NCBI GenBank assembly: GCA_029781045.1
Contig: JAKOXL010000001.1
Coordinates: forward strand, 8,084-72,083
DNA length: 64,000 bases
From: Bacillota bacterium
GTDB taxonomy: Bacteria > Bacillota > UBA994 > UBA5500
Direction of reading: 5' to 3'
How positions within the stretch are numbered: position 1 is the stretch's first letter; each line of letters begins with the position of its first letter. The notes under the pieces are model-generated. The model searched no databases, was not told the origin of the DNA, and worked only from the letters and a program-made list of their open reading frames with translations. Made by a program: the position numbers and the translations under genes. Shown one piece after another: positions 9,296-34,661 of this stretch.

Positions 9296-10699
9296 CTAGC
9301 GCTGCCAATCAAGCCACTCTTGGGTGTACTGCCATTGCCCTCTTTCTGTAGCGCGCGGTTCCCTACCCAAAATAACTCCCGTCTCCGCATCAAAATAGGC
9401 GTAGTCTACCCCCGGCATATTCGCTAAAGGAATGGCATAGGCCAACCTTTCCTCATAACCTCGCCCATCTACAACCGTGAGATGGGGCGTTTCATTCACA
9501 ACAAGGGCTGGGTCTAAGCTATCGATTATATCATCGGCGCTGAGGGAGGCTGCGAAGTTCAGTGGAAGGGGATACTTATCGTAATATAGATCACATTGCA
9601 GCCTAATGGCCGTAGCCATACCGCCGTCAGCGAACTGAGAACAGTAGGACCAAAGCTGGCGACTTTGTAAGGGCACATTCTGTCGCAGCACTACAAACTC
9701 CATACTATAAGAAGTCGCGTCCTGGTGGTAACGGTAGGGGATAATCTCCTCACCCTCCGTTTGGCCCCAGGCCAAGGCCAGAGTCCGAGATAACTGGGCT
9801 AGAAGGTCTAAATCGGGCCTAGGTAGAGAGGCCTCTACTTCCACCACATGCCCTCCAATTTCACTAACCAACACAGTCAAATCCACAGCTGGGGACCGAA
9901 TTGCGAAATCAACTCGCCACAAGTTCCCGTCAGTTTTCCTGCCTCTGTGCACCTTAATCTTTGGCTCTTCCTTGGCCACCAAGTCGGCGTTTTGCAGGAA
10001 CTCCTGCGCCCGTGCCAGCGCCTCAGCTTCGGTGATTCTGGCTTCGCCACTATACCATAGTCCCGGCCAGCTCTGTGGTGGTTTCGCCCGCCCCCGCCGA
10101 TGGGCTTGATAACCCTCATCCTGTTCCCCCGCCTCTTGTAACGCCATTTGCTCGAGCCAGCTATCAAAGGCTTCTTGCACCAGCGGGGTATCCTTCACCT
10201 GTTGCCAGTCGCGACCATAAACCAAGTCCAAGAGAGCCTCTGTCCGCTCTTTGGTGGCAAGAGCCCATTGGCGCAGCTCATGCAGAGATGCTCGCGTTCC
10301 GTGGGGCAGGATACCCTGTAATTGGCTGACATAGGCAAGATAGTCGATAATTGGTCCCCAAGGGTGATGAAGCATCGTATTAAGCATGTAATCATTGCGC
10401 CACGGCGCTGTGAATGGTGCTACAGCCAGTTGGCCGTAGGCTCTCTGTGCCGCAGTTACGGCACCCTGCAGTGCTTCGCTTCTCATAACCTCTTCTGGGC
10501 CCAGTAGGACCTGGGTGAGCTGCTGATCCATGGTTGTTAGCCAGCCCGACTGCTCACGGAGCCAGCGGGCTAAGGATTCCCTCTGGGTGTTTTCTATACG
10601 AAGATAGTATTGATGCTTCTGGCGAAAGCCCCATCCGACTAAGACCACAGCCAACAAGACCAAACCCACCAAACACCACCGTTGCCAGCGTTTGCGCAA
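9296..10699 (-). CDS. membrane-anchored YpeB-like protein with C-terminal PepSY-like repeats
   Basis: N-terminal TM segment. GWGFRQKHQ...ENTQRE resembles the B. subtilis YpeB N-terminus (GYWGYKEHQEK...ENNYQRAF). The C-terminus has Y-x-DAETG-x-I PepSY-like motifs. No sleB is adjacent. Confidence 0.45.
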   Translation of the reverse strand: MRKRWQRWCLVGLVLLAVVLVGWGFRQKHQYYLRIENTQRESLARWLREQSGWLTTMDQQLTQVLLGPEEVMRSEALQGAVTAAQRAYGQLAVAPFTAPWRNDYMLNTMLHHPWGPIIDYLAYVSQLQGILPHGTRASLHELRQWALATKERTEALLDLVYGRDWQQVKDTPLVQEAFDSWLEQMALQEAGEQDEGYQAHRRGRAKPPQSWPGLWYSGEARITEAEALARAQEFLQNADLVAKEEPKIKVHRGRKTDGNLWRVDFAIRSPAVDLTVLVSEIGGHVVEVEASLPRPDLDLLAQLSRTLALAWGQTEGEEIIPYRYHQDATSYSMEFVVLRQNVPLQSRQLWSYCSQFADGGMATAIRLQCDLYYDKYPLPLNFAASLSADDIIDSLDPALVVNETPHLTVVDGRGYEERLAYAIPLANMPGVDYAYFDAETGVILGREPRATERGQWQYTQEWLDWQR

Positions 10700-10812: not shown

Positions 10813-12060
10813 TTAAAGTATGGACTCGCTAACCCCGGCAATGCCGGCCATCATTGTGGCCAGAAGGAAGATGATCTGCGGCCCCTTGTAGGCATTGGTA
10901 GAGTCCCACCATTCTTTGGTGGTATGCACCATGCCCGCGTTGCCACCACCGCCAACACAGACGGCTGGAATGCCCTTGGCAATGGGCGGATTGGCGTTGG
11001 TGTTACCTCCGTGCCCCAGTGTGGGCTCCATACCCATGTCTTTAATCAAGGCATAGGTGGCCTGCACTATCGGAGCGTCTGCCGGTTGGGTGCCGGCCTT
11101 TACGTCCACATAGGTTTCAATGTCGTAGGTGATGGTGTCCATCCCCCAGCGGGCGGTTTCTTCGGCGCAGGCCTCTTTGATGCACTGCAGAACTTTCCCG
11201 TACAGGATATCGAGCTCCACTTGGCAGTCGGAGCGCATGTTCATCTTGATGGTGGCTTTGGGAACGATGGCATGTATAGCCGCATCGTTACCAGCGTGGA
11301 AGTTGCTGACGGCGTAAGTAGTCTTGGGCGATACGGGCACTTCCAGATCAGCAATTTTGGCTACCGCCCGGGCCGCCGCATGTAGCGGATTGGCCACCTT
11401 GCCAAAGGCCCCATAGGCGTGGCCACCAATGCCGTAGAAGTTGACGGCAAAGGTCTTCATTCCCGTTGCCTCGTAGGTAATGGTGTCAATGCTGGCGCCA
11501 TCGATATTGATACACCCGATGATATTGTCATGGTCAGCAAGAAAATCCTTCATGCCACCAAAACCACCCATGCCCTCCTCACGGGATGTGCCCATGAAGA
11601 TGAGGTCATGCTCGGTTTCAATCTGGCTGTGGTTGAAGGCGCGTAGAACCGATAGTACGGCCGCCAAACCTCTAGTGTCATCGGCCATGCCAGGGCAGTG
11701 GTAAACCCCATCCCTTGGTTCTGGGCGACCGGCGACTGTGCCTTTAGGGAAGACCGTGTCCAGATGGCCCTCTATGACAATGGCCTTACCTGTGTTACCT
11801 TTGCCCCGCCGCACGCCGAAGGCATTGCCATGGCGATCCACCTGTACGTCCTCCAGACCTAAGGCCGCCAGCTTATCGGCAAAAGCCCTAGCTCTATCCC
11901 ACTCCTCAAAGGTGGGCGCCTCAATGACAACCAGATCCAGCTGATCCTCCAAGGTGTTCTGCTCATCAGCCTGAATGAACTCCATCCCCCGCTGTACCGC
12001 CTCTAAACCTTTTAGCCGCTCATACGTCTTGGCAATCCTCTCCGACACTACGTACTCCAT
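10813..12060 (-). CDS. M20 family metallopeptidase (ArgE/DapE/CPG2-like)
   Basis: HxD...GHLDTVFP metal-binding motifs and an M20 dimerisation-domain pattern. Start at MEYVVS with an AGGGAGG RBS (the track ORF is longer). Confidence 0.75.
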   Translation of the reverse strand: MEYVVSERIAKTYERLKGLEAVQRGMEFIQADEQNTLEDQLDLVVIEAPTFEEWDRARAFADKLAALGLEDVQVDRHGNAFGVRRGKGNTGKAIVIEGHLDTVFPKGTVAGRPEPRDGVYHCPGMADDTRGLAAVLSVLRAFNHSQIETEHDLIFMGTSREEGMGGFGGMKDFLADHDNIIGCINIDGASIDTITYEATGMKTFAVNFYGIGGHAYGAFGKVANPLHAAARAVAKIADLEVPVSPKTTYAVSNFHAGNDAAIHAIVPKATIKMNMRSDCQVELDILYGKVLQCIKEACAEETARWGMDTITYDIETYVDVKAGTQPADAPIVQATYALIKDMGMEPTLGHGGNTNANPPIAKGIPAVCVGGGGNAGMVHTTKEWWDSTNAYKGPQIIFLLATMMAGIAGVSESIL

Positions 12061-12157
12061 AGTAAGGCCTCCCTCTTGATTCTTATCACTTGGAACGGGT
12101 TTCCCCTTGTGTTTTATTTCTGTAGCCGTATCATTATCCCTGCTGGAAAAGATAAAA

Positions 12158-12181
12158 AGGGCTGTCGCAAAACAGCCCCTT
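12158..12181 (-). terminator. terminator hairpin (GGGCTGTCGCAAAACAGCCC) between the CBM-repeat gene and the M20 peptidase gene
   Basis: aagggctgtcgcaaaacagccccttat. A T-run follows on the minus strand (ctttttatctttt). Confidence 0.5.
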
Positions 12182-12192
12182 ATCATAGCAAA

Positions 12193-13611
12193 TTAGGTCA
12201 AGCGGCAGAAAATCACGTTATCTATATCCAATTCTGGGGTGGTTTCAGCATCATCGTCAGGGCAGCCGAATTGCACACGCGCGGCCACGGCGCCTCGAGG
12301 AGCAGGCTCCGTTACGCCAGCGTAAACCAACCACTTAATGGTGGTGATGCCGTTGCTCTCATGATTACTCTGTAAGATGGCACTTAACCCCAGACCGATT
12401 TCGTTACCGTTTCTATCCAGCCAGATAACTTGGGCCGTGAGATTACTCAAACCGTTACGGGCTCGGAAAGCAAAGCTCAACAGGAAGCAGTGATTCTCAG
12501 CGTAGCGGAGGGGAACATCTTGAAATAGGAAAGAGCCATCGTCCATTTCCGCATATTGGGTACCTTCATAGGAATCGTCTGCCGATGGAGTATCCACATC
12601 ATCGAAGGTCCAGGAGGTCAAACCGTTTTCAAAACCGGGGTTGAGAATTAAGTTAGTAGAGGCTACCCGGATGAAGATGACCTGATCAATATGCAGTGGT
12701 TCGGCAGTGAAGAAGATGATTCTGGCACGCACTGCTCCACGAGGGGCAGGACTGGTGACCCCAAGATAGGTCAGATATCCACCTTGCGTCAGCAGGGTGA
12801 GATTAGGAACAATGAGTTGTAAACCGGGTTCGCCGATAACCGTATCATTCCGATCCAACCATAATACTTGCACCGTTACAGCCGCCAAGGCAGGCGAGTG
12901 GTATCCAACACCTAGCAGATAGGTGGAGCCCCGAGGATGACGGGAGATGTCCACATCCTGCTGCAGCACCGCATTATCGGCATTGGCTACCGCTGCCCCT
13001 ATACCCTCAAGCCGGAAGAAGTAGCTGGGGGCAAAGGTCTCTGTTGTCCAAGAAGTCAAGCCTATTTCAAAACCCGGGTTGTTTACCAGGTTGCCACTGA
13101 GAACAGGGGCCAAAACTATCTGATCCAGTTGAATGAAGCTGGCTTCATTGCCTTCCTGTTTGGTAAATACCAAGCGAGCAAAGGCCGCCTGTGCCGGGGA
13201 AGGGTCCACAATATGGAAATGAGTCACCCGTTCGCTGTCCAGATCAGTCACCGCCTTAGGGTTAATGAAGAGACGGGCACCGTAACCAATAATCCGTTGG
13301 AAACTATCTAGCCAAATTACCTCCACAATCAGGCGCGGTGGGGGGACCAGCTCGGTCACCTGGGAACTTCTGAGGTTGAAGCTTAGGAGCAGAGGGTAGC
13401 CTCTTACCCCAAACAGAGGAATGTCCTGCCAAAGGGCAGCCTGTTCCGGCCCCATTTCCACCAGAAGGTTCCCTTCATAGGTGGGATGGCTGATGATTTC
13501 CACGTCACCAAAGATCTGCCACTCGGCAAAGTCCTGCTTGAAGCTTGGATTCTGGACCAGGTTTAGACCGGGGACGGGCCTACGCTCAACCCTGTATCTC
13601 CGTCTGGCCAT
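12193..13611 (-). CDS. protein made of three tandem CBM4/9-like (carbohydrate-binding, jelly-roll) domains, no signal peptide
   Basis: Three ~150-aa repeats each open with N(L/P)xFExGLTSW-type motifs (LVQNPSFKQDFAEW, LVNNPGFEIGLTSW, LILNPGFENGLTSW). Start at MARRR with AAGGAGGG 7 nt upstream. Confidence 0.55.
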   Translation of the reverse strand: MARRRYRVERRPVPGLNLVQNPSFKQDFAEWQIFGDVEIISHPTYEGNLLVEMGPEQAALWQDIPLFGVRGYPLLLSFNLRSSQVTELVPPPRLIVEVIWLDSFQRIIGYGARLFINPKAVTDLDSERVTHFHIVDPSPAQAAFARLVFTKQEGNEASFIQLDQIVLAPVLSGNLVNNPGFEIGLTSWTTETFAPSYFFRLEGIGAAVANADNAVLQQDVDISRHPRGSTYLLGVGYHSPALAAVTVQVLWLDRNDTVIGEPGLQLIVPNLTLLTQGGYLTYLGVTSPAPRGAVRARIIFFTAEPLHIDQVIFIRVASTNLILNPGFENGLTSWTFDDVDTPSADDSYEGTQYAEMDDGSFLFQDVPLRYAENHCFLLSFAFRARNGLSNLTAQVIWLDRNGNEIGLGLSAILQSNHESNGITTIKWLVYAGVTEPAPRGAVAARVQFGCPDDDAETTPELDIDNVIFCRLT

Positions 13612-13840
13612 GTCTTTTCCCTCCTTTCTCAAGTAGCTGCTTTCCCAATATTGTATGCAGTATAGAATGGTGGTGTGTCATTGTGGCTACACCAACAAGC
13701 TGGCAAGACAAGCAGCAAACCTTTGTACTCAAAGATAGACAAGTGGCATTGCGGAAAGCGGCGTGGTGAACGCCTATGGTATAATAGTTCGCGACCCAAA
13801 TGGCGAGCATTGCTCTAACAGAGGATGAAAAGACTGGGGG

Positions 13841-16022: not shown

Positions 16023-16117
16023 TGGCGGAGGAGGCGGGATTCGAACCCGCGACACGGTTTTTGACCGTGTACTCGATTTCCAGTCGAGCGCCTTAGACCA
16101 TCTCGGCCACCCCTCCA
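16023..16117 (-). tRNA. tRNA-Ser (anticodon GGA), class II with long variable arm, CCA encoded
   Basis: The reverse complement starts GGAGGGGTGGCCGAG...; anticodon stem-loop CTCGA-CTGGAAA-TCGAG; GGTTCGAATCC T-arm; 3' CCA. Confidence 0.85.
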
Positions 16118-16209: not shown

Positions 16210-17619
16210 TTAAGCCTTTTGCCAGATACGAGTGCCAACACTTACCTTGTTGCAGGTACCATTGTAGGCATGAAACTCCAATACTAATCCCGGCGGAAGA
16301 ACTTCGCCAGATCCGGATGAAGTGAAGACACTCCCACCACAGAACAAAAGTGGTTCGCAGTGCTTATCATTTTGGGCAACCAATACACCATTGGCGTTTA
16401 GCGCAATGCGAAGCTCTTCGTCGGCCTCCTGAGAGCTATAGACCCCAGTATAAATCGCCGGATTCTCAGGCTTACCGGACCAAACTTCATGTACCGAGTC
16501 GTGCTTTTGTTCTAGCGGCAATCCTAGCCTCATATTGAGGGCCGCATTGGTCAAAGGCGAACAATCTATGTCGCTGAGATTTGTCAAGACTGTAACAGCA
16601 AAGGCGCCATCCTTAATAAAACATCCGATAGCAGAGACTCCGGTTAACCCACCGTCATGCTCGCAAATAGCCACATCTTCAAACAAGCGCTTATACAATC
16701 CGTAGCAGTAAGTACCCCTTTTTGTCTCTGCGAAAGCCCTGCCAACAAGCCGTTCTACACAGCTTTCAGGGAAGATCCGTTTGCCGCCGTAAACCCCCCG
16801 GCAAGACAACGCCATGAAATACTTGTTCATATCCATTGCCGTTGACTTGATCCAGCCACAGCCTCGGTAAGGCGGGGCGTTATCCCAGTTGTTTGTACAA
16901 TGGATAACGCCATTCTTATCTTTAGTGAAGAGGCTTGTAACATTACCTTTCGGCAATAGAGCGTTCAGATCAAAACTGGTGCGTTCCATTCCTAAGGGTT
17001 GGAAGATACGCCGGTCTGCATAGGTTTCTAACGGCTCTCCTGCCGCTTTATCTATTACACTCGACAGCAGTGCGTAACCTTCGTTTAAGTAGCTCATATA
17101 TCGCCCTGGAGGTCCGAGAACGCGGAAGTTATCCCCTTGCGCAATGAAGGAGATGATGTCGTCTATATGCTCCACCTTGGTCGTGGACTCGGCCTTATAT
17201 CGTTCCTGTATCTCTGCCCTCCAGGGCTCCGTGGGAGTATGCCAGGCCAAAGACCAATCTAAGGTTGGTAGCGGTGGGATCCCGGCAGTGTGATTGGCCA
17301 AATGGTGCACCAACACTGCTTCCTGGGGAGTTCCTGGAATGCGGAAGTCAGGTAAGTACTTCGCTACCGGATCGTCAAAACTGAGTTTACCTTCATGCTC
17401 CAACAAGGCAGCCGCCAGACAAGTAATGGATTTGCTCAATGACGCTATACCAAAAATAGTGTCTGCCGTTGCCTTTTCTTTTCCATCACAGTCCCGGTAG
17501 CCGAATCCCCGGCTATACAGCACTCCGCTATCGTCGCTGACACAAATTGCTGCACCCGGCACCTCTTGCCGCTTAAGCTCCTGAGCAACATGCAAATCAA
17601 GCTTGGCCCAATCGTACAT
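16210..17619 (-). CDS. serine hydrolase, beta-lactamase / S12 D-peptidase family (D-aminopeptidase/D-stereospecific peptidase-like)
   Basis: SxxK active-site motif (ASLSKS). ~470 aa with a C-terminal extra domain as in S12 D-aminopeptidases. Paralog of the 18504-19919 gene. Confidence 0.75.
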   Translation of the reverse strand: MYDWAKLDLHVAQELKRQEVPGAAICVSDDSGVLYSRGFGYRDCDGKEKATADTIFGIASLSKSITCLAAALLEHEGKLSFDDPVAKYLPDFRIPGTPQEAVLVHHLANHTAGIPPLPTLDWSLAWHTPTEPWRAEIQERYKAESTTKVEHIDDIISFIAQGDNFRVLGPPGRYMSYLNEGYALLSSVIDKAAGEPLETYADRRIFQPLGMERTSFDLNALLPKGNVTSLFTKDKNGVIHCTNNWDNAPPYRGCGWIKSTAMDMNKYFMALSCRGVYGGKRIFPESCVERLVGRAFAETKRGTYCYGLYKRLFEDVAICEHDGGLTGVSAIGCFIKDGAFAVTVLTNLSDIDCSPLTNAALNMRLGLPLEQKHDSVHEVWSGKPENPAIYTGVYSSQEADEELRIALNANGVLVAQNDKHCEPLLFCGGSVFTSSGSGEVLPPGLVLEFHAYNGTCNKVSVGTRIWQKA

Positions 17620-17671: not shown

Positions 17672-18469
17672 CTACACTATCCACTTTAATGTTCGCAACA
17701 CCTCATAGTAGCACGGGCTCTCAAAGGTTACTATGTTGGCCGTCTCCCTTTTGACTCCTGGGAAATATGAGACCTTTTCGGCATAGGTGTGCTCTTTGAA
17801 GAAAATCTCGACCTTAAAGTGTTCGGGCAGTTTGATCTTCGCTGCTTGCAAGTCTTGCCGTACGGCCTTTTCTGCCGCGTTACGGATATTCTCAACCACC
17901 AGATCCGGTGAATAGTTTCTTGTTAGGCTACCACTTCCGTCTTTGGTTGGCACCGTCAACAGACTGGGATGTAGTTCGTTTTCGTCCTCACAGAGCATTT
18001 TGTCTCCAGAGAGCAGTACAGTAGGCACTCCTTCCAAAGCACAAGCCCAGCTATAAATCATGAACTCGGAAGCAAAACGACCGTTAATCTTGATCCAAGC
18101 AGGCCTGCCAGTGAGCGTGTGAGACAGAGGATTACCCATCTTGCCAGCGGCCGAATGATAACCAACAAACATGGCACAGTCAAAGGTTTTATCTACTCCT
18201 TCAACCATGAGGTAAGGATGGCCCGACGTGTTACGCAGTAGTACTACATTTTTTGGCATTTGGGCCGGGTCTAGGTTTAGCCCGGAACCATGGGCATCTT
18301 TCACATAGACTTCAGTTGCCCCGCCGGCAAAGGCACCTTCACAGGCCGCCAATACTTCCCGCGTCATTTGCTTAACATGGGGAGCTGCCATCGGTTCCTG
18401 CGTAAAGGTTTCCTTCCATTCCGTCGTACTGGCGATACCTTCAATATCCGCGCTGATAAATACCTTCAT
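17672..18469 (-). CDS. dppA: D-aminopeptidase DppA (peptidase M55)
   Basis: MKVFISADIEGIA N-terminus and the M55 family pattern. 265 aa. Confidence 0.8.
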   Translation of the reverse strand: MKVFISADIEGIASTTEWKETFTQEPMAAPHVKQMTREVLAACEGAFAGGATEVYVKDAHGSGLNLDPAQMPKNVVLLRNTSGHPYLMVEGVDKTFDCAMFVGYHSAAGKMGNPLSHTLTGRPAWIKINGRFASEFMIYSWACALEGVPTVLLSGDKMLCEDENELHPSLLTVPTKDGSGSLTRNYSPDLVVENIRNAAEKAVRQDLQAAKIKLPEHFKVEIFFKEHTYAEKVSYFPGVKRETANIVTFESPCYYEVLRTLKWIV

Positions 18470-18503: not shown

Positions 18504-19919
18504 CTAAAGCCTTTGGTACATTCTATTGCCCGTCTGCATAGCCCAAGCTTTATCATTGCGAATGTAGAATCTTATCAGCATGCAATCCCGTAATGGGTTG
18601 CCACCTTCTCGGGGAGCCAGGAAGTAATTCTCTCCACAGTAGACTAGGGGCCGCTTTTCTCCTTCAGCAAAAGTGAGCACCAATCCGCCCTTCTCTCTCG
18701 CCACCTTATAGGGATAAGCATAAATTGGCATACCATGCTCCCGCGCCCCATAGAAACCTTCATAGATCCAAGGTTCCTGCGGCGGCCTCTGGGAGATTAC
18801 GAAGTTATGAGTATGCTCTTCAGGGTTATGACCTTGGGCAATATTGAAAGCTCCCATGAGAATGCGTACAGCGTCCACGTTACCCACGTTGGTCAAAACT
18901 GTACCCGCAATCCCCCGATCTTTGAAGAATGCCCCTGCGGAGGAGACTCCTTTTAAGCCCCCGGCATGGGAAAACAGCACTTCCCCGCGACAACGGACTT
19001 TCGCCAGACCATAGGCATAGACACTGGTCTTCAGAGTGGGGAAATCATTGCCCAGCAGCCTATCCACTACGCTCTCAGGCAAGATACGTCGGCCCTCAAA
19101 TACTCCATTTTGCGATAGCATCTTGTAGTACTTATACATATCGTGGCTCGAAGAAATAATCCAGCCACAACCACGGTAGGGAGGAGCCATTTGCCAATTG
19201 TCCGAAGCGGTGACTTCTCCATTTTCCTCTTTAGTAAAGACCTGGGTTACGTTATCGAAATCTTTAAGACGGTGATAGCCTAAGGCTGTACGGGTCATAC
19301 CTAGAGGCTGAAAGACCTTTTTTTCCATATACTCTTCAATGCTCATATCAGCTGCCTGGTCCACAATGGACGAGAGTATGGCGTAACAATCGTTGGAGTA
19401 GCTGGTATACTCCCCAGGTTGCCCCAACACTTGGTAATCGCCTTCCATTATATAGTCTATAATGTCTTCTACTGTATCGACTTTGATTAGACTATCAAGC
19501 TGGTCTACCGTCCGTTTCTCTCCCGGATCGCGTTCGGTATGCCTAGCCATACAGTGGGTGAGGGTAGGTAACAACGGCAACCCGGTGGTATGACTCAAGA
19601 GATGCTTAATAAGCACCGCATCCTTGGGTGTTCCCGGTATCTTAAAACGGGGGAAGAAGCGGGTAACCGGATCATCCATGCTCAACTTGCCTTCATGCTC
19701 CAGCAGCGCAATACAGGTGGCCGTCACCGCCTTCGATAGAGATGCAACGCCCATTATTGTATCGCCATCCACCGGCTTTTCCCTTTTTCCATCTCTATAA
19801 CCGTAGGCCTTATCGTAGACTATCCCGTTTCCGTCGGAAAAGGTGATCGATAAGCCTGGGATGTTCTGCCTTTCCATTTCCTTGATGATAAAGCTGTCCA
19901 TTAAGTTCGCATTAAACAT
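18504..19919 (-). CDS. serine hydrolase, beta-lactamase / S12 D-peptidase family
   Basis: ASLSKAV SxxK motif; paralogous to the 16210-17619 gene. Start at MFNANL with an AGGGAGGAT RBS. Confidence 0.75.
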   Translation of the reverse strand: MFNANLMDSFIIKEMERQNIPGLSITFSDGNGIVYDKAYGYRDGKREKPVDGDTIMGVASLSKAVTATCIALLEHEGKLSMDDPVTRFFPRFKIPGTPKDAVLIKHLLSHTTGLPLLPTLTHCMARHTERDPGEKRTVDQLDSLIKVDTVEDIIDYIMEGDYQVLGQPGEYTSYSNDCYAILSSIVDQAADMSIEEYMEKKVFQPLGMTRTALGYHRLKDFDNVTQVFTKEENGEVTASDNWQMAPPYRGCGWIISSSHDMYKYYKMLSQNGVFEGRRILPESVVDRLLGNDFPTLKTSVYAYGLAKVRCRGEVLFSHAGGLKGVSSAGAFFKDRGIAGTVLTNVGNVDAVRILMGAFNIAQGHNPEEHTHNFVISQRPPQEPWIYEGFYGAREHGMPIYAYPYKVAREKGGLVLTFAEGEKRPLVYCGENYFLAPREGGNPLRDCMLIRFYIRNDKAWAMQTGNRMYQRL

Positions 19920-19947
19920 ACATATCCTCCCTACATTCAACTTCAGG

Positions 19948-21069
19948 CTACCGAGAGCTAAGAATACTCATTATCGCGGAGGCTAATGTGTCCACTGAAC
20001 CAGCATTGTTAGCTAATACAACCACTCCAGCCTTTGACTGCGGGCAGAAAATAGTGGTAGAACAGTATCCTCCGACCAATCCGTTATGGTCGTAGATCTT
20101 TCCGTAGGTGGTGTTGCCGATATGCCAACCTAGACCCACAGTCCTTCCGCCGGAGAAATGGGTTTGCTGGGCCAAAGCCATAGCTGCAGACAAACGCTCA
20201 TCCACCGACATAGCACCTAAATTGGCCGCCAAGAAGCGGATCATGTCGCGGGCCGTACTCTTAATACCGCCTGCCGCCTGCAAGGCGTCGAAGTCCCATT
20301 CCTTTCCAGGCGTGCCACTGGCCAGATGGGGTCCAGCCTTGCGAGCCTGCAGAGTCTCATCGGGAAAAACTGTGGTAGACGACATGCCCAACTTATCACA
20401 GATCAGCTCTTTCAGCATGGCGTCATAGGGCTTTCCGTAGGCATCAGACAAACACTCCCCTAGGACCCCCATACCTAAGTTGGAATACTCATAGCGGGTC
20501 CCGGGGGCCCAGCGTAGCGCATTTAGCCGCATGAACTCATTCATATCCTCACGGCTAAAGTCGGCAAAGGGGTTCATGGGATTGAGTACAACCGGATCAC
20601 GGGGCAAGGCGGAGCTATGGGTGGCCAGATGCTTCAAGGTCATCTCCACACCATCATACTCACCGGCTTTACACCCGGGAAAAAACTCTTTCACCGGTGT
20701 ATCCAGAGAAACTATTCCCTGCAACGATAGATCGGCCAGTATTGTGCCAGTGAAGGTTTTAGTCAGCGAAGCAATTTCAAACAGCGTGTTCTCATCAATC
20801 GGCTTGCCGTCTTTATGGGTACGGCCGTAGTTAAAGTAGGCGATCTTTCCATCTTTAACAACCGCTACTGCCATGCCCATAAAACCCTTGGAGTCAAAAT
20901 AGGCTTGGCATTCCCGCCCAATCTTCTCGCGCAGTTCCTTGTCTTCCAGAAAGGGTAACTCGCCCGCCTTTGCGCCCCCTCCAGACAACGAGGAACAGGC
21001 CGCGATCATGGCAGACATGACTATTACAGCCACCAGACCTAACCATTGCCTGCACCTTCTTGTAGACAT
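19948..21069 (-). CDS. beta-lactamase family (class C-like) lipoprotein
   Basis: Signal peptide plus lipobox (MIAACSS). ASLTKTF SxxK motif. 373 aa. Confidence 0.75.
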   Translation of the reverse strand: MSTRRCRQWLGLVAVIVMSAMIAACSSLSGGGAKAGELPFLEDKELREKIGRECQAYFDSKGFMGMAVAVVKDGKIAYFNYGRTHKDGKPIDENTLFEIASLTKTFTGTILADLSLQGIVSLDTPVKEFFPGCKAGEYDGVEMTLKHLATHSSALPRDPVVLNPMNPFADFSREDMNEFMRLNALRWAPGTRYEYSNLGMGVLGECLSDAYGKPYDAMLKELICDKLGMSSTTVFPDETLQARKAGPHLASGTPGKEWDFDALQAAGGIKSTARDMIRFLAANLGAMSVDERLSAAMALAQQTHFSGGRTVGLGWHIGNTTYGKIYDHNGLVGGYCSTTIFCPQSKAGVVVLANNAGSVDTLASAIMSILSSR

Positions 21070-21099: not shown

Positions 21100-23193
21100 C
21101 TAAACCAAGAGACACGATACCCAATGGCCCGGCTCCACTTCCCGCAGTTTAGGCTCCTCTTCCCCACAGCGTTTTTGACAGACTGGGCAGCGGGTATGGA
21201 AGGCACAACCAGAGGGTGGATTTACTGGGCTGGGCATATCGCCTTCTAACCTGATGCGCTCACCCTTGTCACCGCTTATCTTAGGCACCGAAGACAGGAG
21301 TGCCTTTGTATAAGGATGCAAAGGATTGCGGTAAACATCCTTCTTGTCGCCGAGTTCAACGATTTTTCCCAAGTACATGACAGCCACCCGATCCGAGATA
21401 TGGTGCACAACCGCCAGATCATGGGAAACGAAAACGAGCGACAGTTCATAGTGCTCTTGTATCCGTCGCAAGAGGTTAATAATCTGCGCCTGAATTGACA
21501 CGTCCAGGGCCGAAACCGGCTCATCACACACAATTAGCTTGGGGTTGACCGATAAGGCCCGAGCGATACCAATGCGTTGCCGCTGGCCACCCGAGAACTC
21601 ATGGGGGTAACGGTTAAAATAGGAACGTTCCAAGCCGCATTCGTCCATCAACTCTAAAACCCGCAACAGGATCTCCTTTTCCGAGGTCAGAGTGCGCTGA
21701 ATACGGATTGGTTCGGCAATAATCTCACCCACCGTCATGCGGGGATCCAGTGAGGCATAGGGATCTTGGAAAATGATCTGCATAACCTTGCGGTCAAACT
21801 CGGGGTTGCGATGTCCGGTGGAGAGGAAATCGGCAGCCGAGCTGTGGAAGAATCCGTACATAAATGTGTCGGCGTTCGGGAAGCTAGGACCCCAGTCGCC
21901 TAAGAAGGACTGCACGTTACCGGTGGTGCGCTTGTCAAACCAAACGCCGCTTTCCACCTGATCGATCTTGGCCGTCATATTGCAGGCGGCAAAGTCCTGT
22001 TGCATGATCTGGTAAACCTGATAGAAGGTGCCGGTACCCACACAAGTCATCTCAAACTCGATACCATCCGGATAACCAGCTTCAGCTAGTAAAGCTTTAG
22101 CCTTCTCTGGGTTGTACTCAAAACCTGGTAGATTGGGATCATAGCCAGGAACACCTTCCGGTAGAATGGTGTTAACAGCCGGCCACAGACCCTTGAAGAA
22201 CTCTCTGGAAATCTTGTCATTGTCAAAGGCATAGGCAACAGCTTCGCGCACCTTGGGGTTATCGAAGGGCTTTTTGCCATTGTTCATGACGAAGAAGACT
22301 TGCGAGAGGGAGTTCTGAATCTTTACGTTATCTGCGAAGTCTGGGTTAGACAGATACTGTTGAGCCATGGTCAAGCCAAGACCACAATAGTCGATGTTAC
22401 CTGCCTCAAACTCTAGATATCTGGTGTTCTCATCCATGTTGTAGAACTCGAAACCATCCACATTGGGCTTTAGGGTACGTCCATTGTAGACGTTATGGTT
22501 ATAGTTGGGGTTAGGCTTCATAACGATCTTGGTCTCTGGATCGAAGGACTCTAAGATAAAGGGACCCGTACCAACAAGTGTATCAATACCCCAACGATCG
22601 CCGGCTGCTTCGCGGGCGTGCTTAGGCACAATACCTAAGTATTCGTTGGCCAGAGCATGAACAAAGGCAGCATAGGGGCTCTCTAGCGTGATGGAGAATT
22701 TGTACTTGTCAATGACCTTGAAGCCTGCCAAAGAATCGGCCTTGCCATCCATCATTTCTTTGGCGCCCAAGATGAAGTCAATCATCCAAGTGTTGAGACA
22801 GTTGGTGGCTGGATTGAAGAAGGTATTGAAGGTATACTCTACGTCTTCACTGGTGAGCTCAACACCATCATGGAAGAGAATGCCTTCTTTAAGTTCAAAG
22901 GTGTAGGTCAAGCCGTCTTCACTAACAGTTGGGAAATCCTTCACGAGCAGTGGGTACATTTCGTACGTAAAAGGCCGCTGGCCAATAAGGGGTTCACAGA
23001 TAAAGCTGTAGGGGGTGGCCACTCGTGGATAGGTGGATTTCATCGCATCGATATGGCCATCCGTGCCGTAGTCTCCACCTAACCGCATAATCTTGTCGCC
23101 GCTAGGCTGAGGCTCAGGGGTTGATGGGGTACATCCGACAAGCGCACTGATGAGCATAAGTGAAACTAACAGGACTGCCAAAAACCGCTTCAT
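21100..23193 (-). CDS. chimeric ORF: family-5 peptide/nickel substrate-binding lipoprotein fused in-frame to the C-terminal half of an OppF/DppF ATPase lacking Walker A; probable internal deletion remnant of an opp/dpp operon
   Basis: N-terminal lipoprotein signal (LVGCTPS) and an SBP_bac_5-like body reaching the ...NPEFDRKV motif. The ORF then continues directly into [25 protein letters not shown]..., with the ABC signature FSGGQRQR, Walker B LIVCDEP and the C-terminal oligopeptide-ATPase extension. No GxxGxGKS/T is present. Start at MKRFL with an AAGGAGGAT RBS. Confidence 0.6.
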
Positions 23194-23221
23194 ACGTATC
23201 CTCCTTTGTTTTTTGTGGCAA

Positions 23222-23247
23222 TAAACGAAACATCTCATCGATGTTTA
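23222..23247. promoter_or_regulatory. inverted repeat AAACATC-N5-GATGTTT; candidate TetR operator just upstream of the SBP::OppF ORF
   Basis: Perfect 7-nt inverted repeat with a 5-nt spacer, 30-50 bp upstream of the 23193 start codon, in the region divergent from the TetR gene. Confidence 0.25.
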
Positions 23248-23447
23248 TGCCCAACTTCCATTACCACTGCAAGGAATTCCTACTCTCCCGACGAATAACA
23301 TAGCATGCTAACTATCTCGTAAGCCATCCGAGAATTCTGATAAGCATTACTTAATCTAGTTTTTCTTTCAAAAATGACACACTTTTGTAACCTTTACCGA
23401 TATATCTATCAATCAAGGGAAATCACTTTGGGAAAGGGGTGTTCTAG

Positions 23448-24070
23448 GTGACTAATGATACATCGCGCAAAGAACTGGTGTTTAATGCCATAGAAGCTCT
23501 TCTGCTAGAGGAAGGCAGGAAGAGCCTAACCTACGCCAAGATCTCCGAAAGGTGCCATCTACACACCAATACCATCACCTACTATTTCCAGAGCAAAGAA
23601 GATATGATGGTCCAGTTTTTCCAGTACATCGTAGACAGGGACAACGCTAATCTACCGCCTTCTTTACCCACGTGCCCCAAGGCATGACACCGGTGGAAGC
23701 CTTCAATATGTTAATCGATTACATCATAGATGGAGGCCACCTGGAGTCAAAAACTCGACGCTTGCTCAACTTGTATCTGCTGCCACACAAGGATATCAGC
23801 CCCAAGGTGCGAGAGCTGTTCTCCAGAATACACAACACGGCTTGTGCCAACGAGTTAAAGGCCATTGAGATGTACAATAGTCTAGGCATTATCAACGCCG
23901 ACAAGATAAGAGAAGCCTTTGCCGATATAACCTTTGTTTCTTCCGGCCATTCTCTGATCAAACTGTTCGGGGTTGATTGTGTTGATATCGATTTGGCACT
24001 GCATCATGCCAAAGAACGTATAAAGAAGACTTTGCTCAAACCCGAGTATTATGAGGAATGCGCCAAATGA
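23448..24070 (+). pseudogene. TetR/AcrR family transcriptional regulator, split by a frameshift near 23651-23687
   Basis: The N-terminal TetR HTH (TYAKISERCHLHTNTITYYFQSKEDM) is in frame 1 and stops at 23687. The ligand-binding-domain-like remainder is in the +1 frame, open from 23651 to 24070. The combined length of ~205 aa is typical of TetR. This could be a sequencing error. Confidence 0.5.
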
Positions 24071-24120: not shown

Positions 24121-24212
24121 TGGCGGAGAGAGTGAGATTCGAACTCACGGAGCAGGATCGCTGCTCACCCGCTTTCGAGGCGGGCGCCTTAAACCACTCG
24201 GCCATCTCTCCC
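24121..24212 (-). tRNA. tRNA-Ser (anticodon CGA), class II, CCA encoded
   Basis: The reverse complement begins GGGAGAGATGGCCGAGTGG; anticodon loop CTCGAAA; long variable arm; GGTTCGAATC T-arm. Confidence 0.85.
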
Positions 24213-24673
24213 TATTTTTCTCTTAACTCCGCAAAAAAGCGACGTAACAGCTGACTGCTTTCCTCAGCCAAAACCCCTGAGGTAACTTCCACCCGGTGGT
24301 TCAACCGTTCATCCCGCACCAGATCCAGCAAGCTACCGCAGGCACCAGCCTTCTTATCAGGGGCCGCATATACCAAATGGGGTATGCGGGCCTGCACAAT
24401 GGCTCCTGCGCACATAGGGCAGGGCTCCAAGGTAACGTAAAGCGTACACCTGGTGAGCCGCCAGCCGCCTAAAACTCGGTTGGCTTGGCGAATGGCCAGC
24501 ATCTCGGCATGGGCCGTGGCATCGCGCTCTGTTTCCCGCAAATTGTGGGCTTTAGCGATAATAGCACCGTCGCGTACAATGACGGCCCCCACCGGGGTCT
24601 CCCCCAACTCATAGGCCTTCCGCGCTTCCGCCAGTGCTATCTGCATAAAACTCTCATGGAGTTCTTGCATCGC
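24212..24673 (-). CDS. tadA: tRNA adenosine(34) deaminase TadA
   Basis: CDA-fold zinc motifs HAEMLAI...PCPMCAGAI. Start taken at MQELHESFMQIALAEA; the longer track ORF runs into tRNA-Arg. The stop codon abuts or overlaps the tRNA-Ser(CGA) 5' end. Confidence 0.8.
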   Translation of the reverse strand, partial: AMQELHESFMQIALAEARKAYELGETPVGAVIVRDGAIIAKAHNLRETERDATAHAEMLAIRQANRVLGGWRLTRCTLYVTLEPCPMCAGAIVQARIPHLVYAAPDKKAGACGSLLDLVRDERLNHRVEVTSGVLAEESSQLLRRFFAELREK

Positions 24674-24745
24674 CAACCACAACCCTTTAAGTCTATCTGC
24701 AAAGACAGACAGTGCGCCTCCCAGCGCACTTACCTTGATTGCTAA

Positions 24746-24821
24746 TGGCGCACCCGGAGGGAATCGAACCCCCGACACGCGGTTTAGGAAACCGCTGCTC
24801 TATCCACTGAGCTACGGATGC
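24746..24821 (-). tRNA. tRNA-Arg (anticodon CCT)
   Basis: Reverse complement GCATCCGTAGCTCAGTGGATAGAGC...; anticodon loop TTCCTAA; ...GGTTCGATTCC...CCA. Confidence 0.85.
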
Positions 24822-24827
24822 ATAAAA

Positions 24828-24904
24828 TGGCGCGCCCGGCAGGATTCGAACCTGCGACCACCGGATTCGTAGTCCGTTACTCTATCCAGCTGAGCTACGG
24901 GCGC
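24828..24904 (-). tRNA. tRNA-Arg (anticodon ACG)
   Basis: Reverse complement GCGCCCGTAGCTCAGCTGGATAGAGT..; anticodon loop CTACGAA; ..GGTTCGAATCC..CCA. Closely resembles canonical bacterial tRNA-Arg(ACG). Confidence 0.85.
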
Positions 24905-24912
24905 ATAAAAAA

Positions 24913-25008
24913 TGGCGGAGAGGGCGGGATTCGAACCCGCGACACGGCTTTGGGCCGTGTAACCGCTTAGCAGGCGGCCGCCTTCGACCTACTCGGCCAC
25001 CTCTCCGC
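24913..25008 (-). tRNA. tRNA-Ser (anticodon GCT), class II
   Basis: Reverse complement GCGGAGAGGTGGCCGAGTAGG..; anticodon loop CTGCTAA; long variable arm; GGTTCGAATCC; CCA. Confidence 0.85.
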
Positions 25009-25087
25009 ATCGCCTATCTATTGTAACACGTCTTCACCGGGCTGCGCAACCACCATTTACTGCCGCTAGCCCGAAAAGAGACTTTGC

Positions 25088-25178
25088 TGGCGGAGAGAGA
25101 GGGATTCGAACCCCCGGTCCCTTGCGGGATCACTGGTTTTCAAGACCAGCGCCATAAACCACTCGGCCATCTCTCCGC
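25088..25178 (-). tRNA. tRNA-Ser (anticodon TGA), class II
   Basis: Reverse complement GCGGAGAGATGGCCGAGTGGTTTA..; anticodon loop CTTGAAA; long variable arm; GGTTCGAATCC; CCA. Confidence 0.85.
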
Positions 25179-32558: not shown

Positions 32559-33626
32559 TTATTCTTCTCGTCCTAAATATCTGGCTGCCAGATGAACACT
32601 CACCAGACCGGTTAGTATTAGATAAGCAATGGGTCCAAAAGCCGGCTCATTACCGGCGGCAAAATACCCCCGTACGATTTGGGCCGAAATGAGGGTTGGC
32701 ACGATACTACTTACACGCTCTAGCCACAGGGGTAGCACCACTGGCACGGCAGCCAGGAACATGGCCGGCAGTGTCAACAGAAAGCGTAAGCCGTTCCCCT
32801 CATTGCTCCCGCGCACGTAGGAACCGATGAGCACCCCTAAGGCCACCGAGTTAAAGCAAATGCTAACTATAATGAGGTAAAACTGAGGGTCGGTGACAAA
32901 GGGCGCTGGTAAGATAACGCCAGTCAGCACCACAATGGCCAGCAAGGGCAATAGGGCGCTAAACAAACCCGCCCCTACCTTAGCCCAGACAATCTGACGA
33001 TCGGTCAACGGCGATTTGCGCAGAGAGATTAAGGTGTTTTTGTGGCGCTCCATGCTGATACTCTGCTGACCTAGGCTCATGGCCGTCATAACCCCCATAA
33101 TGACAAAGAGGGAAGAATAGACCAATTGCCCCATAGAAGTAACCGGTTGACTAACCTCCACCACTTGCCAGGAAATGGGCAGAAGGATGCTCTCCGGGTC
33201 AGCAACCAAATCTGCCAAAGTCTCCATGGCCCGCAGTTGATTACTGTCTCGCACTATTTCGGTAAAGATAGCTTGCGCCACAGTACCTTCTGTTTCCGTC
33301 AGGTTGGCATACATGGTAACTTCCCGCGACTGCAAGACCAGATAGGCATGAATGGCTCCTGCTTGCAGCCGTTTAGCCGCCTCCGGCTCGCTTAGCGGCC
33401 AGATGACAAGCTTAATATTGCTGGCTGCCGCTTCTTGTACCCGCTGCTCTAAGGTGGGCAGATAGGCCGGATTGCCTACTAAGGCCACCTTTACCTCCAG
33501 CGACTGATCTTGTAGATAGAAGTTGGCAGCCAACAGAATCAGAGGCACAATGATCATCCAAAGCAATTCTCGCCGATTTCTTAGCACGGTGCGAATATCT
33601 TTTTTCAGCAGCACATAACCCTTCAT
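32559..33626 (-). CDS. ABC-2 family transporter permease
   Basis: N-terminal TM segment, a large extracytoplasmic domain and a C-terminal 5-TM ABC-2 membrane domain. Overlaps the upstream ATPase gene by 4 nt. Confidence 0.6.
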   Translation of the reverse strand: MKGYVLLKKDIRTVLRNRRELLWMIIVPLILLAANFYLQDQSLEVKVALVGNPAYLPTLEQRVQEAAASNIKLVIWPLSEPEAAKRLQAGAIHAYLVLQSREVTMYANLTETEGTVAQAIFTEIVRDSNQLRAMETLADLVADPESILLPISWQVVEVSQPVTSMGQLVYSSLFVIMGVMTAMSLGQQSISMERHKNTLISLRKSPLTDRQIVWAKVGAGLFSALLPLLAIVVLTGVILPAPFVTDPQFYLIIVSICFNSVALGVLIGSYVRGSNEGNGLRFLLTLPAMFLAAVPVVLPLWLERVSSIVPTLISAQIVRGYFAAGNEPAFGPIAYLILTGLVSVHLAARYLGREE

Positions 33627-34525
33627 TGGGCAACCTCCTGATAGACCCGTTGATAGACATCTTCTAGAGCTGCCCCCTGCTTTTGCATATCCAGCACCGC
33701 AATCTGTTGTTCCGTCAGGGCTGCCAATACTCTCTGAAGGTTTTCCGGCCTGTTTAGCACCGAAATAACGCCGGGAGCCGGAGTAGTTATTAGTCCCTCC
33801 AACCCCTGGGGCTGGGCATCAACCCGCAGCTCGATGTAGTCATAAAATCCGTATTTCTCTTTTATCTTCTCCAATGTGCCGGAGATGACCATCCTGCCTT
33901 CTTTCATAATGCCCACTTCCTGACAAAGGTCCGCCAACTCCCGCAGATTGTGGGAAGCGATTATCACCGTCATCTCGTTATATTGCAGCAAGTAGTGGAT
34001 AAAATCTCGCAGGCTCTGCATAGCCAGCGGATCCAGGCCCGAAAAGGGCTCATCCAGAAAGAGCAGCCGTGGATTGTGAATGCAGGCGGAGAGGATGGCC
34101 ACCTTCTTGCGCATGCCGGTGGAAAGACGTCCTACCTGCTGGCGGCGCCACTCGTCTAATTCGAAGCGTTGCAGGAGCTCACCTATGTTGCGGCTAACGC
34201 CATAAAGGTCAGCAAAGAAACGCAGCGTCTCCTCCACCGTCAATTCGTCATAGAGGCGCAGATTCTCCGTCAATAGGCCCGTCAGCCGCCGAATGCGTTT
34301 CTGGTCCTTAAGCAGATCTAACCCCAATATCCAACCGGAACCTTTCGAAGGTGCCAAAAGGGTGTTGAGGAGCATAAAGGTGGTAGTTTTACCGGCCCCG
34401 TTATGGCCAATCAGACCATAAATACTATTGGCCTTAATCATCAGAGACAGGTCCTTAACCGCACAAGTCGGACCTATCTTACTGACGAAAGTCTTAGTCA
34501 ACCCATCAGTGATAATGGCGTTCAT
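33623..34525 (-). CDS. ABC transporter ATP-binding protein
   Basis: Walker A (GHNGAGKTT), signature (LSTGMRKK) and Walker B (LLFLDEP). Start at MNAIITDG with a GAGGCGGGG RBS. Confidence 0.8.
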   Translation of the reverse strand: MNAIITDGLTKTFVSKIGPTCAVKDLSLMIKANSIYGLIGHNGAGKTTTFMLLNTLLAPSKGSGWILGLDLLKDQKRIRRLTGLLTENLRLYDELTVEETLRFFADLYGVSRNIGELLQRFELDEWRRQQVGRLSTGMRKKVAILSACIHNPRLLFLDEPFSGLDPLAMQSLRDFIHYLLQYNEMTVIIASHNLRELADLCQEVGIMKEGRMVISGTLEKIKEKYGFYDYIELRVDAQPQGLEGLITTPAPGVISVLNRPENLQRVLAALTEQQIAVLDMQKQGAALEDVYQRVYQEVAQ

Positions 34526-34661
34526 GGTTCCCCGCCTCTCTAACATGAGCATGAATATCATATAACGTTCTACTCACTGGCCCCCAATCCCTGCATTTTG
34601 AGCAGGAATAGCTGGCACCGACGCGAAAGAAACATTAGAACAAAAAAGAGGGTGAAGTAGG

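Follow-up and report, generated by a model that had tools for sequence, protein, structure and literature searches.

A fused oppA-oppF reading frame, almost certainly a chimeric pseudogene, left by a 3,446-bp deletion that is polymorphic within its species

The 64,000-nucleotide stretch of DNA analysed here (the window) carries a single open reading frame in which most of a peptide-binding lipoprotein gene, oppA, continues into the distal part of the transporter ATPase gene oppF. We consider it almost certain that this frame is a chimeric pseudogene produced by one illegitimate recombination event, that the event segregates in the species and that the transporter is dead. The breakpoints of the deletion, the 4-nt microhomology at its ends, its size, its polymorphism and the secondary lesions that followed it can all be read directly from the sequences compared. 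The locus is a case of ordinary, recent gene loss of a known kind and represents no new kind of protein.

Composition of the fused reading frame

Alignment to Pfam recovered a complete SBP_bac_5 domain (PF00496) at residues 78-454 of the fused frame (profile positions 1-366 of 368, E=1e-84), followed by a partial ABC_tran domain at residues 463-560 (profile positions 53-136 of 137 only, E=7e-13) and by oligo_HPY (PF08352) at residues 612-676 (profile positions 1-65 of 65, E=9e-21). This agrees with the original prediction, made from the letters of the sequence, of an in-frame chimera between a substrate-binding protein (SBP) lipoprotein and half of an OppF ATPase. The Logan contig SRR15686344_365771 encodes exactly the same 697-aa protein. 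An upstream ATG at 23238 is an alternative start and would give 712 codons; the start at 23193 is preferred because the AAAGGAGG site lies just upstream of it and because MKRF is the start in all relatives.

The N terminus carries a lipoprotein signal with a lipobox of the Gram-positive form, and the lipobox that had been proposed was found in the translation (Table 1). A hydropathy scan showed that residues 1-24 alone pass the transmembrane threshold, with the lipobox ending that hydrophobic segment, and that no transmembrane segment separates the SBP half from the ATPase half. Because the ATPase fragment thus lies behind a Sec/lipoprotein signal with no membrane segment between, it would be exported rather than remain cytoplasmic.

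The oppA-derived protein sequence matches the species' own intact OppA (P0123, from locus L011) at every one of residues 1-471, and the underlying genes differ at four synonymous nucleotides. To the OppA of L002/L007 the protein sequence is 86% identical. The intact allele encodes 533 aa and the window copy stops at residue 471, which makes it less than a full-length SBP; against solved structures, the alignment of the N-terminal half to OppA (1b05) ends at about residue 451 of 517. By the domain boundaries reportedly set out by Tame et al. in 1994, the missing C-terminal segment of OppA is the one that completes domain III and leads back into domain I.

The oppF-derived residues 472-697 are likewise identical to residues 100-325 of the L011 OppF, with one synonymous nucleotide difference, and align to residues 100-330 of OppF in the solved structure 8z21_D. 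The ATPase motifs that were kept are the Q-loop (FQDP, 475), the signature (SGGQ, 534), Walker B (LIVCDE, 553) and the H-loop (SHD, 590). A regular-expression scan for Walker A ([AG]x4GK[ST]) was negative throughout the fused protein, as expected from the earlier claim that it has no P-loop; the Walker A of the L007 orthologue (GESGCGKS, residues 53-60) falls within the deleted part. The NCBIfam OppF model (NF011659) aligned over positions 94-330 of 334 and scored 332.8 bits where 540 are required; the model of the dipeptide ATPase subfamily gave 320.5 against 408. These cutoffs do not separate truncated from intact proteins, since the intact OppF of L007 also falls below both (434.8 against 540 and 407.7 against 408).

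Table 1. Coordinates of the fused reading frame, its parts and the neighbouring genes in the window
Feature	Position	Strand	Description	Basis
Fused ORF oppA'-'oppF	21100..23193	-	697 codons plus stop; almost certainly a chimeric pseudogene	ORF list, Pfam
Ribosome-binding site AAAGGAGG	23200..23207	-	6 nt upstream of ATG 23193	sequence read
Lipobox L-V-G-C	23131..23142	-	residues 18-21 (ALVGC, Cys21)	read from translation
oppA-derived part	21781..23193	-	codons 1-471; last 62 codons of the 533-codon gene gone	
Deletion junction	21781..21784	-	single remaining copy of the TATG direct repeat (4-nt microhomology)	BLAST, L011 against window
oppF-derived part	21100..21780	-	codons 100-325 plus stop; Walker A gone; Q-loop, signature, Walker B, H-loop and oligo_HPY kept	
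bla373, beta-lactamase family (AmpH/class-C-like)	19948..21069	-	373 aa; intact; lipoprotein-type N terminus	PF00144, E=3e-68
S12-type beta-lactamase-fold peptidase	18504..19940	-	471-478 aa; intact; closest to Pab87/CubicO	PF00144
Peptidase_M55 (DppA-type D-aminopeptidase)	17672..18469	-	265 aa; intact	PF04951, E=1e-79
Second S12-type beta-lactamase-fold peptidase	16210..17619	-	469 aa; intact; last gene of the operon	PF00144
TetR-like regulator, divergent	23448..24070	+	inactivated: loss of 1 nt near 23656 shifts the frame from about codon 70	

The intact allele and the deletion

The ancestor of the fused frame can be identified, since an intact allele is present in the same species. It consists of a TetR-like regulator, oppA (533 aa), oppB, oppC, oppD, oppF (325 aa) and the same hydrolase genes, and it was found in the runs SRR28082824 (L011 and L021), SRR18680874 (L013 and L022) and SRR24580159 (L016 and L023), whose aligned segments match the window at 99.2% identity or more. 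When L011 was aligned to it by BLAST, two collinear segments resulted that overlap by the four nucleotides TATG and are separated by a gap of 3,446 bp. In the intact allele, the repeat lies at codons 470/471 of oppA, where AAGGTTATG is followed by GAAGCC, and at codons 98/99 of oppF, where CGCGATATG is followed by CAGATC. One event explains both breakpoints: lost are codons 472-533 of oppA, the complete genes oppB, oppC and oppD, and oppF up to codon 98 or 99. The original prediction of an in-frame deletion running from oppA into oppF was therefore right about the deletion and its ends, as the intact allele demonstrates, but its estimate of about 4 kb was too large.

The TATG in oppA was joined to the TATG in oppF with loss of 3,446 bp, most likely by replication slippage or microhomology-mediated joining. 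The fused frame is open because oppA and oppF chance to be in phase at this point, and translation would proceed from the oppA ribosome-binding site through to the oppF stop codon.

Synteny with related genomes, which had been suggested as a check on the deletion, is in agreement: oppBCD are present in the intact allele of the same species, and permeases and ATPases are present in related species. L002/L007, L005 and L006, all from other species, show the order SBP(534)-permease-permease-ATPase-ATPase, and the same hydrolases follow the ATPases in L002/L007 and L005, the L006 contig stopping inside the first ATPase gene. Genes for OppB and OppC were present in L002, L005, L006, L007 and L011. 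A scan of contigs with the SBP part returned other species only, at 76-86% identity. Within the 64-kb window, tblastn with OppB, OppC and OppD from L007 found no permease, as had been stated from the sequence, and the only other ABC ATPase there is an unrelated ABC-2 exporter subunit (33623-34561).

With the permeases and OppD gone, an ATPase without a P-loop and predicted to be exported, and an SBP that lacks 62 residues, the transporter is almost certainly nonfunctional. The exact breakpoints against L011 and L021-L023 thus uphold the view of the locus as a nonfunctional transporter remnant ahead of intact hydrolase genes.

Recurrence of the junction and decay of the remnant

The same junction is present in the window and in SRR15686344, SRR29056426, SRR29056433, SRR24425295 and SRR24425291. 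A collapsed assembly had been named as the alternative, in which the distant oppA 3' and oppF 5' regions would be misjoined and the real operon would be intact. Three points would fit such an artefact: the source is apparently a metagenome-assembled genome, the species has intact alleles, and two contigs, from SRR24201656 and SRR24201657, start exactly at TATG. Such contig starts are, however, what a graph branch would give if one sample held both alleles, with coverage ends possible in principle. Logan assembled each run separately with k=31 and dropped k-mers seen once (PMC12424806). Because the 4 nt common to both sites are far below k=31, and because the identical junction was reproduced in at least five independent per-run assemblies in addition to the window, with its k-mers seen at least twice per run, an assembly collapse is ruled out for practical purposes. 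The deleted allele also has private secondary mutations in different runs, of which a recurrent artefact would give none, and we regard the probability of a misjoin as very small. An exact search for the 28-mer junction in JGI metagenome contigs gave no match. The deletion is a polymorphism within the species and not its fixed state.

Over 2,094 nt, five synonymous and no nonsynonymous changes separate the remnant from the intact allele, and the deletion is recent by this measure. So small a number of conspecific substitutions does not suffice for dN/dS, and synonymous sites are saturated against L007, the nearest other species, leaving dS undefined; the dN values against L007 (0.095-0.099 for the remnants and 0.109-0.199 for the hydrolases) mostly reflect history before the deletion. 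Other strains with the deleted allele carry further damage. In SRR29056426 and SRR29056433, loss of 1 nt at oppA nt 407 breaks the frame into 135 and 561 aa, and in SRR24425295 and SRR24425291, oppA nt 745-1130 are swapped for foreign DNA with a phage tape-measure gene and the oppF part carries N102K. These independent disabling lesions indicate relaxed constraint after the deletion, and the remnant would be decaying neutrally in the population. As a separate observation, contig L018 begins with 28 nt of foreign sequence that had no match among the sequences compared.

The same lesions bear on whether selection might maintain the fusion as a functional protein. It could, for instance, be an orphan lipoprotein that binds peptides for another permease, the OppF tail being carried along as a passenger or acting as a new domain. 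The frame of the window strain is open over 2.1 kb behind a strong ribosome-binding site, its SBP_bac_5 core is complete and it shows no nonsynonymous change from the intact allele, although the last point is uninformative with just five substitutions in all. However, sister strains with the same deletion have the frame broken by a frameshift or by foreign DNA, the SBP is without its 62 C-terminal residues, and the architecture occurs in no homologue among the best matches of a search of 5.8 billion proteins. None of these best matches spans more than 71% of the query, and the full-length best matches are SBP-only or ATPase-only. Selection for a working fusion is accordingly judged highly improbable. 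A conserved fusion family was also considered and rejected: the only proteins among these matches with both domains (P0008, P0017 and P0018) have the order ATPase-ATPase-SBP with complete ATPases, and the fusion is limited to one species, which also has the intact allele.

A further explanation accepts the deletion as real and proposes that it spread since loss of the importer helps, for example by shutting out a toxic peptide or a phage dependent on the lipoprotein; a join that is in frame may have been favoured for keeping the downstream hydrolases translated and transcribed. The selection of opp mutants by toxic peptides is classical. The deleted allele appears in several runs with accession numbers in at least three separate blocks, the haplotypes that carry it show differences at as many as 10 of the 16 variable sites downstream, and the regulator was independently inactivated in the window strain; positive selection would explain the presence of the allele in several unrelated projects, its varied haplotypes and the regulator loss. 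Nevertheless, the sample comprises only about 10 contigs, the intact allele occurs about as often (three runs), secondary lesions are what neutral decay predicts, and an in-frame join has a 1-in-3 chance anyway. In addition, the last hydrolase gene is frameshifted in a strain with intact opp, a sign that selection is relaxed across the locus as a whole. As to whether the deletion arose once or repeatedly, deleted and intact haplotypes are not cleanly told apart by the 16 variable sites in the 3.8 kb downstream. We consider adaptive loss unlikely and favor a chimeric pseudogene under neutral decay.

Operon neighbours and comparison with known systems

The DppA and the three S12-type hydrolases described downstream from the sequence were recovered by Pfam as one Peptidase_M55 and three PF00144 proteins. 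The bla373 gene begins 30 nt past the fused frame and is also next to oppF, on its 3' side, in L002, L005, L007 and L011; its best NCBIfam match is AmpH-like and below cutoff. The last gene of the operon encodes a protein 71% identical to a 471-aa protein of L002/L007. The best solved relative of the S12 peptidase at 18504..19940 is 2qmi (E=2e-35), which is Pab87, a D-stereospecific S12 peptidase (PMC2651629).

The hydrolase genes are intact and could still be transcribed from the oppA promoter. A consensus scan counted 12 promoter-like sites against 9.2±3.1 in shuffled sequence, which is no excess, and 7 terminator-like sites against 9.6±3.4, a count that is silent on a terminator between the fused frame and the hydrolase genes. 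An Rfam scan of the window returned tRNAs only, with no riboswitch or leader before the operon. For the divergent regulator, tblastn with a 209-aa orthologue falls into two frames in the window, where one C is missing that is present in L011, L012 and L017, in which the gene is an intact 207 codons. Its TetR_N match, at 21.8 bits (E=1.6e-4), is weak and falls short of the cutoff of 24.

The 697-aa product sits nameless in public protein collections (NCBI and Logan sources), and a domain-based pipeline could call it substrate-binding or ATP-binding. It should be flagged as a pseudogene, and metabolic reconstructions of this organism should not count it as a sign of a peptide transporter. The junction, GTTATG followed by CAGATC, is a possible strain marker, and the locus is a natural knock-out for the function of the operon that combines Opp with D-peptidases. 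Knowledge of ABC transporters is unchanged by it.

Compared with OppA/DppA-type SBPs (cluster C), residues 1-471 have the lipoprotein signal and the complete SBP_bac_5 profile, but 226 residues from a cytoplasmic ATPase stand in place of the last 62, and the cognate permease genes are gone. The likeness to OppF/DppF subunits (8z21_D and 8z1v_D) lies in the Q-loop, signature, Walker B, H-loop and Cys-rich oligo_HPY tail, whereas the first 99 residues, including Walker A, are absent here and the fragment stands behind a secretion signal. In the dpp operon of Bacillus subtilis, the D-aminopeptidase gene dppA is encoded together with a dipeptide ABC transporter. The ancestral operon here similarly joins an Opp/Dpp-type importer to an M55 DppA-like protein and S12 peptidases, but gene order and hydrolase number differ, and the transporter half is deleted in the window strain. 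The M55 protein scored 110.7 bits with the NCBIfam DppA model, far under the equivalog cutoff of 430, and the D-peptidase specificity of the hydrolases is predicted.

The closest comparison is with chimeric pseudogenes formed by microhomology-mediated deletion, in which one deletion between short direct repeats keeps a single copy of the repeat, the genes on either side become fused, and later frameshifts and insertions pile up. Nothing essential is different here. With its intact allele, its deletion at a 4-nt microhomology and its three independent decay steps, the locus offers a small textbook case of the birth of a pseudogene; it is slightly unusual in that the join is in frame and in that the intact and deleted alleles and three further stages of decay are all visible in public data.

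Domain organization of the fused reading frame

The original prediction described a peptide-binding lipoprotein that continues in frame into the part of an OppF-type ATPase following the Walker A, and the Pfam domains, motif scan, structure matches and neighboring genes all agreed with this description. The motif scan detected no Walker A in the entire 697-residue protein, and the Q-loop, signature, Walker B and H-loop were all present. Comparison with solved structures matched the C-terminal half to residues 100-330 of OppF (8z21_D) and the N-terminal half to OppA-type structures, stopping at approximately residue 451 of 517. Translation probably begins at the ATG at 23193, on the basis of AAAGGAGG 6 nt upstream and the equivalent start in the relatives, every one of which aligns there with MKRF or MKRL. 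As the signal peptide is the sole hydrophobic segment in the hydropathy scan, no membrane segment lies between the "outside" and "inside" halves.

Coordinates of the fused reading frame, its breakpoint and associated features (window positions unless stated; / marks the breakpoint)
Feature	Position	Strand	Details
Fused ORF oppA'-'oppF	23193 to 21100	minus	697 residues
SBP_bac_5 (Pfam)	residues 78-454		profile 1-366/368, E=1e-84
ABC_tran (Pfam)	residues 463-560		profile 53-136/137, E=7e-13
oligo_HPY (Pfam)	residues 612-676		profile 1-65/65, E=9e-21
Intact oppA at breakpoint			...GAC CGC AAG GTT ATG / GAA GCC...
Intact oppF at breakpoint			...CGG CGC GAT ATG / CAG ATC ATT...
Window at breakpoint			...GAC CGC AAG GTT ATG CAG ATC ATT...
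Retained TATG copy	21781-21784		
TetR-like regulator	23448-24070	plus	1 nt lost near 23656
Upstream substitution cluster	23253-23262		60-70 nt upstream of oppA start
ABC-2 exporter ATPase	33623-34561		
Last S12-type hydrolase	16210-17619		L011 9977-11385
tRNA gene	16026-16116		
Pfam-less ORF	9296-10699	minus	
M20/M28 peptidase gene	10813-12186		
Pfam-less ORF	12193-13632	minus	

Directly downstream, beginning 30 nt past the fused ORF, are genes for a 373-aa beta-lactamase-family lipoprotein (Bla373), two S12-like proteins of ~470 aa and a Peptidase_M55 protein (Pfam). No OppB/OppC-like permease was found within the 64-kb window, and the only other ABC ATPase there is part of an unrelated ABC-2 exporter. 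A scan without statistical power detected no terminator-like site between the fused ORF and the hydrolase genes; the hydrolases are presumably still transcribable from the oppA promoter.

Elsewhere in the window, serS and a tadA-like deaminase gene are separated by five tRNA genes (24124-25176 and 24212-24778, both minus strand). At its 5' end, the longest deaminase ORF (188 aa from a GTG start) extends into a tRNA gene, so the true start is probably an internal Met, in agreement with the 152-aa gene calls on Logan contigs. Two ORFs of 467-479 aa without a Pfam match flank an M20/M28 peptidase gene, and their position is conserved in conspecific contigs.

Relatives and deletion breakpoints

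The whole fused protein was searched against 5.8 billion proteins. The best matches were SBP-only (top: 84% identity, 534 aa) or ATPase-only; none covered more than 71% of the query, and no conserved family joining an SBP to a truncated ATPase was found among them. Three matches from other organisms (P0008, P0017 and P0018) carry both domain types, in the order ATPase-ATPase-SBP with both ATPase domains complete, and were rejected as the same fusion because the opposite order and complete ATPases make this a different architecture. These proteins (1,066-1,121 aa, on contigs of 51-99 kb) contain two complete ABC_tran/oligo_HPY modules and then a complete SBP_bac_5; if they are real rather than gene-call read-through, the former signal peptide could serve as a membrane anchor joining cytoplasmic ATPases to an external binding domain.

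The SBP homologs align with the query through NPEFDxKVM and continue with AARAITDP for about 62 further residues, in place of which the query changes over to QIIFQDP. The closest SBPs, on contigs of other species (L002/L007, L005 and L006), stand every time in the order SBP, two permeases, two ATPases; the same beta-lactamase-family and M55 genes as in the window come next in L002/L007 and L005, and the L006 contig stops inside the first ATPase gene. Each half of the window protein is 85.8% identical to its L002/L007 counterpart (OppA residues 1-472 and OppF residues 100-325); the intact hydrolase genes are no closer (71-83%).

Conspecific Logan contigs from other runs were found by exact-sequence look-up of the Bla373 and M55 proteins, with aligned segments 98.7-99.8% identical to the window. 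Three runs hold the intact operon (SRR28082824, L011/L021; SRR18680874, L013/L022; SRR24580159, L016/L023), encoding a TetR-like regulator of 207 aa, OppA of 533 aa, permeases of 311 and 302 aa, ATPases of 334 and 325 aa, and then the hydrolases. L011 aligned with the window as two collinear blocks (L011 1-2369 and 5812-16595) whose window coordinates overlap by exactly 4 nt. Together with the breakpoint readings, this identifies the loss of 3,446 bp between two TATG direct repeats, one copy of which is retained. Codons 472-533 of oppA, the whole of oppB, oppC and oppD, and oppF up to codon 98 or 99 were lost, removing both permeases, OppD and the OppF P-loop and truncating OppA. The oppA and oppF frames are in register at the join by chance. 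These breakpoints support the reading preferred in the original prediction, an in-frame internal deletion leaving a nonfunctional remnant. Deletions flanked by direct repeats of a few bases typically arise by replication slippage or microhomology-mediated joining, one of which probably produced this single deletion.

Assembly collapse, proposed as the alternative source of the junction, is excluded. The window shares an identical junction with contigs from five separately assembled runs (SRR15686344, SRR29056426, SRR29056433, SRR24425295 and SRR24425291). Logan builds a separate de Bruijn graph (k=31) for each accession and drops k-mers that occur a single time (PMC12424806), so each junction contig implies junction-spanning reads in its own run; moreover, a 4-nt repeat is unable to join two loci at this k. 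Between the SRR15686344 contig and the window there are four differences, each >9 kb away from the junction. In SRR24201656 and SRR24201657, contigs start exactly at TATG, which we infer to be the graph branch expected if both alleles coexist in these samples. A conserved fused family and an overlooked Walker A, which would also have contradicted the deletion, are likewise excluded.

Decay and strain variation

The window remnant differs from intact L011 at five positions over 2,094 nt, all synonymous, which makes the deletion very recent. In SRR29056426 and SRR29056433, which carry the deleted allele, loss of 1 nt at oppA nt 407 breaks the ORF into 135 + 561 aa. In SRR24425295, SRR24425291 and SRR24425306, oppA homology ends at nt 744 (window 22450) and restarts at nt 1131 (window 22063); in place of nt 745-1130 stands foreign DNA (L019 2355-4337, L020 873-1171, L018 1-28), which may be a prophage or another mobile element inserted there. 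It includes a gene that matches the phage tape-measure domain TMP_3, and these strains have N102K in the oppF part. The window strain and SRR15686344 keep an uninterrupted fused ORF. In these two, the divergent TetR-like regulator (TetR_N match weak at 21.8 bits, under cutoff) is frameshifted at ~codon 70; it is intact in all other strains compared (207 codons in L011, L012, L017, L019, L022 and L023). The differing extra lesions among deleted-allele strains are the pattern of neutral decay of a dead gene and argue against a chimeric protein kept for function. The 16 variable sites found over 3.8 kb of downstream sequence gave no clean division into deleted and intact haplotypes. That loss of the importer is adaptive in this species seems improbable.

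Further variation was observed around the locus. Upstream of oppA, five substitutions and a 1-nt indel within 10 nt are private to the window/SRR15686344 haplotype among the strains compared (L011, L012 and L017 share another version) and could reflect an altered promoter or operator, or a micro-inversion. In SRR28082824, with intact opp genes, a 1-nt deletion at nt 534 splits the last S12-type hydrolase (187 + 259 aa), so the part of the locus that is lost varies from strain to strain. In SRR18680874, the operon is followed directly by a tandem pair of phage-integrase-family genes and by further foreign genes (L013 6705-8704), just beyond the position matching window 16210, where the window has a tRNA gene; they probably represent an element integrated at the tRNA site.

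Probable ancestral role and classification of the remnant

A polypeptide behind a lipoprotein signal undergoes Sec export in an unfolded state. Since the signal directs this export, the ATPase fragment would end outside the cell in one chain with an incomplete binding protein, where degradation is its probable fate. The ancestral operon probably served to take up and break down peptides with D-amino acids, as suggested by an Opp/Dpp importer combined with an M55 DppA-type peptidase and S12 peptidases, whose best solved relative is Pab87 (2qmi). Both enzyme types are described as D-stereospecific (PMC2651629), and the M55 protein falls under the NCBIfam DppA equivalog cutoff.

The value of the locus lies in correct annotation and in a neat natural example of pseudogene birth and decay. 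By descent, the N-terminal half belongs to the OppA-type SBPs, without a complete C-terminus or partner permeases, and the C-terminal half to the OppF/DppF ATPases, without a P-loop and presumably without a cytoplasmic location. Taken together, the two halves make up a chimeric pseudogene derived by deletion, which is a type of object already known.
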